A stretch of DNA of 64,000 nt, taken from assembly GCF_013167455.1 (NCBI RefSeq), contig NZ_CP038328.1. One strand, written 5' to 3'. Position numbers: made by a program. Source of the DNA: Escherichia coli O157:H7 (GTDB lineage: Bacteria; Pseudomonadota; Gammaproteobacteria; Enterobacterales; Enterobacteriaceae). Positions 55,516-58,500 of the stretch are shown piece after piece (position 1 is the stretch's first letter; the number at the start of each line of letters is the position of its first letter).

Positions 55516-58500
55516 TAATGGCGTTAACAATGCGAGCGTGCCTGATGCGCTACGCTTATCAGGCCTACGAGACTCCTGCAATATATTGAATTTGCATGTT
55601 TTTGTAGGCCGGATAAGGCGTTCACGCCGCATCCGGCAAGAAGCTATAAGAAAAGGGCGGAGATCATCTCCGCCCTTTTTATTTCTGCAATCCGCAATTA
55701 TCATCCCGCAGTTCTATACTTTTTGGGTCAACACGTAACGCTTTACAGGTGATTATCATGGGGCTTTTTGATGAAGTTGTCGGCGCCTTTCTGAAAGGCG
55801 ATGCGGGGAAATATCAGGCGATTTTAAGTTGGGTTGAGGAGCAGGGTGGCATTCAGGTGCTGCTGGAAAAACTGCAAAGTGGCGGCTTAGGGGCCATTCT
55901 CTCAACCTGGCTGAGTAATCAACAGGGCAATCAACCAGTTAGCGGCGAGCAACTGGAATCAGCACTCGGCACAAACGCGGTATCCGATCTTGGACAAAAA
56001 CTTGGCGTGGATACCAGTACGGCTTCCTGTTTACTGGCAGAACAATTGCCGAAGATTATTGATGCGCTCTCACCGCAAGGTGAAGTGTCACCACAAGCCA
56101 ATAACGATCTGCTTTCCGCAGGCATGGAACTGCTGAAAGGGAAACTCTTCCGCTAAGCAAATGGGGAGCATGCAACCCGCGTTGCATCCCCCTTTTCCCT
56201 CGGGTGTTGTACTGATTTTTGAGCGGAATCGCGTTAGCATGGGTCAGGAACCAATCTACCTGGGGAACTCATGGCTATCAAACTCATTGCTATCGATATG
56301 GATGGCACCCTTCTGCTGCCCGATCACACCATTTCACCTGCCGTTAAAAATGCGATTGCCGCAGCTCGCGCCCGTGGCGTGAATGTCGTGCTAACGACGG
56401 GTCGCCCTTATGCAGGTGTTCACAATTACCTGAAAGAGCTGCATATGGAACAGCCGGGCGACTACTGCATTACTTATAACGGCGCGCTGGTACAGAAGGC
56501 CGCTGATGGTAACACCGTGGCGCAAACTGCTCTCAGCTATGACGACTATCGTTTCCTGGAAAAACTCTCTCGCGAAGTCGGTTCTCATTTCCACGCCCTG
56601 GACCGCACCACGCTGTACACCGCCAACCGTGATATCAGCTACTACACGGTGCATGAATCCTTCGTTGCCACCATTCCGCTGGTGTTCTGCGAAGCGGAGA
56701 AAATGGACCCCAATACCCAGTTCCTGAAAGTGATGATGATTGATGAACCCGCCATCCTCGACCAGGCTATCGCGCGTATTCCGCAGGAAGTGAAAGAGAA
56801 ATATACCGTGCTGAAAAGTGCGCCGTACTTCCTCGAAATCCTTGATAAACGCGTTAACAAAGGTACGGGTGTGAAATCACTGGCCGACGTGTTAGGTATT
56901 AAACCGGAAGAAATCATGGCGATTGGCGATCAGGAAAACGACATCGCAATGATTGAATATGCAGGCGTCGGTGTGGCAATGGATAATGCTATTCCTTCGG
57001 TGAAAGAAGTGGCGAACTTTGTCACCAAATCCAACCTTGAAGATGGCGTGGCGTTTGCTATTGAGAAGTATGTGCTGAATTAATCTGTGGGCGGGCAAAC
57101 AGCATAAACGCGTTTGCCCGCTTACTGATTATTGGTTTACTGCATATACAACCAGAAATTGCAGCGGCGCAGTAATGATGTCCAGCGTAACAGTCACTGG
57201 CAGTAATGCTGCGGAAACACCATCCGGAATGCCTCTGGGTGAATAGTATTCATAAAATCGCACTTTAAATGGATGGTAGAACGCCATCACCTTTGAGTAA
57301 TCCATGTTTTTATTTTTCTCATGGATTGTGCCTTTTAGGTTTTCCAGTGACCTGGTACAGTGTTGAACACCACAGGCAAAACCATAATGCGTTGCCAGTG
57401 CCTTTTCTTCTTCGTTATTCCAGTAGTAGTAAAGCGATATTGTGCCGGTAAATTTCTTTTTCCCCGCATTTAAAACAAATCTTGCGTCATTGGCAACCTG
57501 AATATTGTGCCGGTTAAGTGCTGGATCATTGAGCATCTTAACGATGTCATCGGCACCATCAGTGATAAGGTAATCCAGCGATTCCCCTACAAAAACATAG
57601 CCTTTTGTTCCATTACTATCTTTTGCCTGCGATAGCCCAGTGATGGTGTCTGACTGCGATTGATACTTTCCTGAACTACCCTTTGCGGTATGGGAAACCA
57701 GAGCATACGAGATACAGCCTGAAAGCATCAGCGCCAGTGGGAATAAACTGGCAGCCTTAAAAAATCCCTTAAAATTCAACTTCATGATTAATCCTTTAAA
57801 CGAGTAGCTAAGCCGTTGAAAGCATACTCTTCTTTCCCTCCTGTTTAGCGCCTGATCTCCCTTTTCAGATTTCTGCCCGATATAAGACCTTTTCTTATGA
57901 GGTGTTTTTTTGTGGACTAATATCTGTTGCAAGGCTATGGGTTCGCACCTGCACTGGTTTATATCTCCGCCGTCGCGTTGATTGGCGCGCTCTCTTACAT
58001 CCTGCTGGTGGGCGATGTGACGCGCGTTGGCTAATCTTTCAACTGTGGAATATGCGCCATACCACTGCGCATAATCCACTTTCTTAAAGCCGGTGCGGTC
58101 AGGCATCGGCTTTTTACTATCTTGCCGAAGAGTTTTAAACGCAGTTTGCGGGTGGCGTGCCAGTAGGCTGCGTTGATCTTCTCTGGCTGCTTCAGTAACA
58201 CCGAACGCAGAATCTCTGCGCTATCCAGCGCATAGCTTATCCCCTCCAGCGAGCTGGCGCTGATAAATCCCGCCGCTTCACCAATCAGAAAGGCGTTGTC
58301 CTTACCGCAGACAAAATCCTGCCAGCGTGAGGGAAATAGCACCGTGCATTTTTCGCTTTTTACCGCCTTACCAAACTGGAATTGAAAGGCGCTCATTTTC
58401 TCTTTCAGCGTCGTGAAACGCGTCTGACCGTCTTTCATTGGATAGGCACCGCCAAAGATAAAATAACCGTCTTTGCTGATACTCCATGAGTAACAGTCAG

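Follow-up and report, generated by a model that had tools for sequence, protein, structure and literature searches.

Loss of the D-galactonate operon between yidX and cbrA in Escherichia coli O157:H7

The yidX–cbrA locus and its deletion junction

In Escherichia coli K-12, the dgoRKADT operon, which provides transport and catabolism of D-galactonate and is repressed by the GntR/FadR regulator DgoR, lies between yidX and cbrA. We analyzed the same site in a stretch of 64,000 nucleotides (nt) from E. coli O157:H7 (NCBI RefSeq assembly GCF_013167455.1, contig NZ_CP038328.1), referred to here as the window, and found that the operon is missing. The distance from yidX to cbrA is 245 bp in the window versus 4,996 bp in K-12 MG1655, where dgoR, dgoK, dgoA, dgoD and dgoT lie in between. 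What is left of the operon is the 3' end of the transporter gene dgoT. The local order is gyrB, yidB, yidA, yidX, spacer, cbrA and yidR, and the features of the locus are listed here in window coordinates, with the neighboring genes last.

57786–58030: yidX–cbrA spacer, 245 bp
57786–57920: retained yidX-side part of the yidX–dgoR intergenic region, 135 nt, from alignments to K-12, O111:H2, APEC O1 and SCU-484
57876–57920: left divergent patch, gatataagaccttttcttatgaggtgtttttttgtggactaa
57920–57921: nominal deletion junction, with breakpoints from blastn against K-12, a repeat search and an edit-distance scan
57921–58034, plus strand: dgoT 3' remnant, the last 37 codons and the stop codon
57129–57785, minus strand: yidX, putative lipoprotein, from the open reading frame (ORF) and the Prokaryotic Genome Annotation Pipeline (PGAP) annotation in an identical O157:H7 record
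58031–59095, minus strand: cbrA, colicin M resistance flavin adenine dinucleotide (FAD)-dependent reductase, from the ORF and PGAP annotation
53101–55518, plus strand: gyrB
56271–57083, plus strand: yidA
59196–60410, plus strand: yidR

The absence of dgoRKADT from this site, proposed in a preliminary description made from the sequence alone, is borne out by two collinear blastn blocks. The left block pairs positions 57000–57920 with MG1655 3876223–3875302 (98.0% identity), and the right block pairs positions 57921–59400 with MG1655 3870551–3869072 (96.1%). The MG1655 segment between them (3870552–3875301) contains dgoR, dgoK, dgoA, dgoD and codons 1–393 of the 430 codons of dgoT. The gap of about 245 bp had been described correctly, and the "about 5 kb" assigned to the dgo genes agrees with the K-12 spacing; the exact length of the deleted segment is 4,750 bp. 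The preliminary description had also called for the breakpoints to be mapped against K-12. The left one falls within the 277-nt yidX–dgoR intergenic region, of which the 135 nt beside yidX are kept and the 141 nt beside dgoR are gone. The right one falls within dgoT, of which 114 of 1,293 nt are kept and 1,179 are gone. Because the breakpoints lie inside the intergenic region and inside dgoT, the locus represents a deletion rather than an insertion site that was never filled.

The lost 141 nt contain the two DgoR operators, IR1 and IR2, which overlap the dgo promoter, inducible by D-galactonate (PMC11705089). In K-12, the bases directly past the left breakpoint read ATTGTAGTACAACAATAT..TTTGTACTACA, and ATTGTAGTACAACAATAT is the core of the IR1 oligonucleotide published as CTAAATTGTAGTACAACAATAT (PMC11705089). 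Since these bases match the published oligonucleotide, the deletion starts four bases into it and so takes both operators together with the promoter.

The remnant at 57921–58034 agrees with K-12 dgoT at 35 of 37 residues and at 105 of 114 nt. As part of a 1,480-nt collinear alignment, this match is far beyond chance. It also settles the point on which the preliminary description had staked its reading, namely that the frame encodes the DgoT C-terminus; the estimate of "~110 bp" for this 3' end becomes 114 bp. As further described there, the frame has neither a start codon nor an upstream gene body: a TAA at 57918–57920 closes it directly upstream, it contains no ATG, and its sole start-like codon is a mechanical TTG at 57927. 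As in K-12, the dgoT stop codon at 58032–58034 and the end of cbrA at 58031 share 4 nt, and the convergent position of the two genes is kept. RefSeq/PGAP labels the same coordinates "hypothetical protein; incomplete; missing N-terminus". With 37 of 430 codons left, the 12 transmembrane helices of a functional transporter are lacking, and the promoter and operators are deleted. The remnant is a silent dgoT pseudogene fragment that has no promoter, ribosome-binding site or start codon.

The junction reads GTGGACTAATATCTGTTGC, also given as GTGGACTAATATCTG. It lies nominally at 57920|57921, with equally parsimonious placements up to ~8 nt rightward in an edit-distance scan of breakpoint pairs. 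The junction shows no sign of an insertion sequence (IS) element, whether as a complete copy, an end or a target-site duplication, and the K-12 flanks account collinearly for all 249 nt of 57786–58034. Repeats, inverted or direct, were likewise not found at the junction, and microhomology at the nominal breakpoints in K-12 amounts to 0 nt, with the caveat that the parental sequence may differ from K-12. The two K-12 breakpoint regions are ~33–43% identical to each other, which is near random. The hallmarks of IS-mediated deletion and of repeat-mediated deletion by homologous or short-homology recombination are absent. The locus is best explained by a single old deletion of ~4.75 kb, which probably arose by illegitimate recombination. 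This event took dgoR, dgoK, dgoA and dgoD along with their promoter and operators, as well as codons 1–393 of dgoT, and left a silent fragment of 114 nt.

A new function in the spacer was considered and rejected. No Rfam family is present in it (the only hit, frnS, has 20 bits, below its gathering score of 60, with E = 0.51), one weak promoter-like and one weak terminator-like site both occur at the frequency expected from shuffled sequence, and the sole ORFs are mechanical ones of 35 and 61 amino acids. The deletion makes cbrA and yidX, both on the minus strand, tandem neighbors. The yidX gene of the window is a K-12-type allele with 3 differences in 657 nt. A single base in the end of dgoT decides the stop codon of cbrA (GGCTAA versus GGATAA), so that in O145, APEC O1 and others the annotated gene is 36 nt longer and reaches into the dgoT remnant.

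Operon loss at this locus is ordinary gene loss that is visible in any alignment of K-12 with O157:H7, and the remnant is already flagged in RefSeq. What we add are the precise positions of the breakpoints, the finding that operators and promoter are lost, the range of genomes with the deletion, and a divergent patch that flanks the junction.

Distribution of the deletion within and beyond E. coli

Many E. coli O157:H7 chromosomes match the 1,601-nt stretch from 57100 to 58700 without a single difference, several of them at the same coordinates. To describe the distribution, we used a set of 5,426 complete E. coli genomes and an 80-nt probe centered on the junction. The junction occurs in 413 of these genomes, with one match each (306 at ≥99% and 107 at 95–99% identity). 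The carriers include O157:H7, O55:H7 TB182A, O145 RM8843-C1 and EC974, a sequence type (ST) 219 isolate from a urinary tract infection, as well as isolates from baboon, deer, frog, sewage and healthy humans. We take O157:H7, O55:H7, O145:H28 and ST219 to belong to phylogroup E. The deletion allele is fixed in the O157:H7/O55:H7 lineage and extends to further E. coli of this deep lineage, most likely phylogroup E; the paper on EC974 names O55:H7 RM12579 among the closest genomes. The O157:H7 strain of the window inherited the deletion.

The deleted 4,750-bp segment is present in 5,022 genomes of the set and has no match in the other 404. A sensitive blastn search for dgoKAD, reaching down to ~65–70% identity, likewise gave no match in 404 genomes. 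Because the number of dgo-free genomes nearly equals that of the 413 carriers, the great majority of junction carriers have no dgo genes anywhere. No relocated dgo operon was detected, as judged from these set-wide counts and not from the source genome singly, and no O157:H7 record is found among the dgo-positive matches listed. We consider it very probable that the deletion is lineage-wide and has left a dgoT pseudogene remnant.

Other dgo lesions and copies occur in E. coli. O141:H4 P13-6 has a different deletion that spares just the first 197 nt of the segment, and strains LH13-b and 2017.17.01CC carry IS1 inside dgoT. A few E. coli contain a xenologous dgoRKAD cluster that is ~75% identical to K-12, does not include dgoT and is flanked by IS elements. 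This cluster resides on plasmids (NZ_LT883139.1, 3315–6625 of the fetched stretch), and a related variant occupies another chromosomal site. Used as a query, the plasmid-type cluster returned non-O157 records only, among the matches listed.

The deletion is also found outside E. coli. Escherichia sp. E1V33 (GCA_004211955.1, NZ_RHJI01000002.1; 10540–10770 of the fetched stretch) has the same junction and patch, the left part of the patch being identical. Its gyrB is ~95.5% identical to that of E. coli and the surrounding 9.4 kb are ~92–93% identical. In E. albertii TW07627 (GCA_000155105.1), a 248-nt spacer (2876–3123 of the fetched stretch) separates yidX from cbrA and holds a dgoT 3' remnant. 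The remnant is called there as a 40-amino-acid "D-galactonate transport" ORF, and the same allele, with its 248-nt spacer, is present in three metagenome contigs. An edit-distance scan over all breakpoint pairs places the best-fit breakpoints of TW07627 within a few nt of those of O157. On the left side of the patch, both carry a derived signature, "cttatgaggtg", in place of the "ttatgcattg" or "ttatggattg" of intact alleles; TW07627 and the carriers have in common at least four derived changes within 10 nt ("atgaggtg" and the loss of a C). In contrast, the junction-proximal bases of TW07627 differ from those of O157 (gtatgtatgaatttgtg), and its remnant is otherwise K-12-like.

Over the 6-kb locus, TW07627 is 88–89% identical to E. 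coli, and its cbrA is ~98.6% identical to that of the second E. albertii genome described below. Beside yidX, its spacer scarcely differs from E. coli, and the yidX gene belongs to the class found in B2 strains and O145. The flanking genes of the dgo-less alleles of E. albertii and E1V33 are 5–11% diverged from E. coli. A second E. albertii (GCA_027566115.1) has a 112-bp cbrA–yidX spacer (6889–7000 of the fetched stretch) with no dgoT remnant; this spacer retains "atgcggtg tggcgca" and is possibly a further-reduced form of the deletion.

A divergent patch at the junction and the age of the allele

The patch around the junction differs by 20–25% from every intact dgo locus examined, versus 0–4% for the rest of the remnant and spacer. 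Its left part (57876–57920, ~45 nt) shows 12–13 differences per 50 nt to the K-12, O111:H2 and B2 alleles and is identical in all carriers examined. The right part starts at 57921 and covers the first 24 nt of the remnant in O157 and 33 nt in other carriers; 7–10 of the differences between the remnant and intact alleles fall in its first 40 nt and 1–3 in the remaining 74. The intact loci examined from E. coli phylogroups A, B1 and B2 do not have the patch, and neither do those from E. marmotae and two additional yidX-type lineages of E. coli, which are K-12-like at both patch positions. Neither half of the patch was found in any intact-dgo E. coli genome by a probe search of the 5,426 genomes that was able to report 40-nt half-matches.

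The dgoT-side changes are TAC to TAT, GCG to TTG, CAG to CAA, GGT to GGC, TAC to TAT and GGT to GGG, joined in non-O157 carriers by GCA to GCC and CCT to CCG. Seven of nine are synonymous third-position changes (binomial p ~ 0.008 for seven or more of nine at third positions), and there is one double change, Ala to Leu. Because of this excess of synonymous changes, the pattern looks like the divergence of a once-functional gene under coding constraint and not like decay or repair error. Neutral decay alone is a poor fit for the same reason, and because the patch is identical among carriers that differ elsewhere. At five of the seven differences in the right patch, the base equals the one found past the left breakpoint in K-12 (p ~ 0.045, a value inflated by AT bias). 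A mosaic junction formed from a heteroduplex of the left and right regions was nevertheless not adopted as an explanation, since the two regions have ~33% identity in that register and chance matches are made more frequent by AT bias.

We searched for a source of the patch with DNA patterns that all demanded the Leu codon or codons, so that a donor with Ala at this position would be missed. With this limit, the pattern TAYCTGTTGCARGGYTAYGGNTTYGC, compared with one genome per species (100,044 species), matched only E1V33, which itself has the deletion, and two metagenome scans returned no intact patch-type dgoT coding stretch. A protein search with the Leu-variant C-terminus gave fragments only, all of them YLAQ or other variants and none YLLQ. 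A foreign donor was considered as well and none was found; the intact loci fetched by way of YidX homologues carry K-12-like sequence.

The genes on either side of the junction have histories of their own. E. coli yidX falls into two allele classes that differ at ~207 of 657 nt (31%), with 62% amino-acid identity. The first class is present in K-12, O157, O111:H2, XH990 and EC974, and the second in APEC O1, SCU-484 (B2) and O145; additional classes are found in E. albertii (74%) and in one more "E. coli" lineage (77%). This divergence is far above the intraspecies norm and suggests old introgression or diversifying selection on the lipoprotein. The deletion is paired with the K-12 yidX class in O157 and with the B2 class in O145 and TW07627. 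The cbrA gene is a mosaic and unusually polymorphic, with 2–4% pairwise differences among nine genomes, and the O157 allele is no nearer to the alleles of fellow carriers than to that of K-12. The terminal 200 nt of dgoT differ at only a few positions between E. coli and E. marmotae, although gyrB differs by ~6%. This likeness suggests either recent exchange or an unusual constraint on the dgo operon.

The deletion allele is probably much older than O157:H7. We read it as old and cross-lineage because the patch is 20–25% diverged and because the allele occurs in E1V33, with a relative in E. albertii TW07627. For a single-origin, trans-lineage history, in which the allele was carried by homologous recombination or persisted as an old polymorphism, we see a chance that approaches but does not quite reach an even one. 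The narrower proposal that one very old loss allele has been circulating across E. albertii, E1V33 and E. coli phylogroup E by homologous recombination is more tentative still. Under such a history, the flanks of the deletion allele would have been repeatedly overwritten by local sequence; the two yidX pairings, the mosaic cbrA and the shorter right patch of O157 are the reasons for supposing an old allele with replaced flanks. The bases nearest to the junction could not be converted by an intact donor without restoring the operon. Hence, a junction core of ~70–80 nt would be shielded from conversion and would keep the diverged sequence of a dgo haplotype that is no longer found intact. If true, this would be a clean natural example of a gene-loss allele that spread horizontally or persisted for long, and a hint that losing D-galactonate catabolism is favored in some niches. 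The yidX–cbrA region is a recombination mosaic and may serve as a test case for the spread of gene-loss alleles, but it represents no new kind of system.

Alternative histories, phenotype and comparison with known losses

The bare pattern of presence and absence between strains could arise if the O157:H7 state were the ancestral empty site and dgoRKADT had been inserted as an islet in K-12 and most E. coli, but this pattern is the only observation in favor of such a history. The 114 nt of dgoT coding sequence are kept in frame to the stop codon, and an insertion cannot leave a truncated gene end. Moreover, only the distal half of the yidX–dgoR intergenic region is kept, and intact dgo stands at the same place in E. 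marmotae and in all other E. coli lineages examined, so that we give this history practically no weight. We dismiss with the same confidence a recent strain-specific deletion or an assembly artefact, because the identical junction recurs at 95–100% identity in 413 independent complete genomes, among them O55:H7, O145 and strains that are not Shiga toxin-producing E. coli (STEC). That the operon has moved, with an intact or xenologous cluster elsewhere in the strain and D-galactonate use retained, is very improbable. The second-type dgoRKAD clusters of some E. coli, as an IS-flanked plasmid copy or as chromosomal variants, and the presence of some dgo-like DNA in a few junction carriers (quantified below) speak for this possibility. 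Against it, the number of genomes without dgoKAD-like DNA comes near that of the carriers, of which 306 are O157/O55-like, and the listed dgo-positive matches contain no O157:H7 record.

The cross-lineage part of the history has its own competitor, in which phylogroup E, E1V33 and E. albertii suffered independent deletions at a fragile spot and the patch arose from error-prone repair or neutral decay. We consider this unlikely, even though the junction is ambiguous to ~8 nt, the best-fit breakpoints of TW07627 are not strictly those of O157, and dgo has been damaged separately elsewhere, as the deletion in O141:H4 P13-6 and the IS1 insertions in dgoT illustrate. The matches of five of the seven right-patch differences to post-breakpoint K-12 sequence also hint at a messy junction. 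Yet the junction of E1V33 is that of the E. coli carriers, with no difference in the left patch, TW07627 shares its derived changes with the carriers, and there is no repeat or microhomology that could make a hotspot. Furthermore, the prevalence of synonymous third-position changes on the dgoT side is unlike repair error or decay.

Several observations weigh against our interpretation of an old, lineage-wide deletion that abolishes D-galactonate use. Simple arithmetic on 413 carriers and 5,021–5,022 dgo-positive genomes out of 5,426 means that at least 8–9 junction carriers also hold some dgo-like DNA elsewhere. The deletion most likely marks phylogroup E, as judged from the strain identities of the O157:H7, O55:H7, O145 and ST219 carriers and not from a phylogeny; the allele also occurs outside E. 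coli. The near-identity of E1V33 within ±50 nt of the junction is not significant when compared with the locally low divergence of the flanks (Poisson, roughly p = 0.06), and the junction position in TW07627 is ambiguous by several nt. No intact dgoT with the patch was found in the genome, species-representative, metagenome and protein searches. The literature searched contains no explicit dgo loss or D-galactonate-negative phenotype for O157:H7, phylogroup E or E. albertii, and the basis of the predicted phenotype is the genotype.

D-Galactonate is degraded by a pathway of the De Ley–Doudoroff type. It is reasonable to predict that the O157:H7 lineage is unable to use D-galactonate, because the transporter, dehydratase, kinase and aldolase of this pathway are all missing from the locus and no growth on this substrate would be expected. 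D-Galactonate is usable by most E. coli, and the loss would amount to a small but real metabolic difference for the O157:H7 lineage and its relatives. A Biolog study in which dgo was not analyzed found lower metabolism of D-galactonic acid-γ-lactone in an STEC group that included O157:H7 (PMC7354573). According to papers cited in the DgoR literature, D-galactonate is linked to gut colonization (PMC12288454). The deletion is relevant to strain-specific metabolic models and to the competition between commensal and enterohemorrhagic E. coli, and its junction sequence may provide a stable lineage marker.

The closest known system is dgoRKADT of K-12, which occupies the same yidX–cbrA site and has an orthologous dgoT 3' end. 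Unlike K-12, the window lacks the promoter, both operators, dgoR, dgoK, dgoA, dgoD and most of dgoT, and nothing functional is left. The dgo-less alleles outside E. coli resemble that of the window to different degrees: E1V33 shares the junction and the patch, and TW07627 shares a remnant, nearby breakpoints and the left-patch signature. Lineage-specific metabolic losses are known from O157:H7 and Shigella; they include the K-12-specific segments of genome comparisons with O157:H7, and O157:H7 is classically sorbitol-negative and β-glucuronidase-negative. The loss of dgo is similar to these cases in that a catabolic function of most E. coli is missing from a pathogen lineage and a pseudogene scar is left behind. 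In contrast to them, it extends beyond the pathogen to E. coli that are not STEC and to other Escherichia lineages; it therefore predates O157:H7 and is not obviously pathoadaptive.

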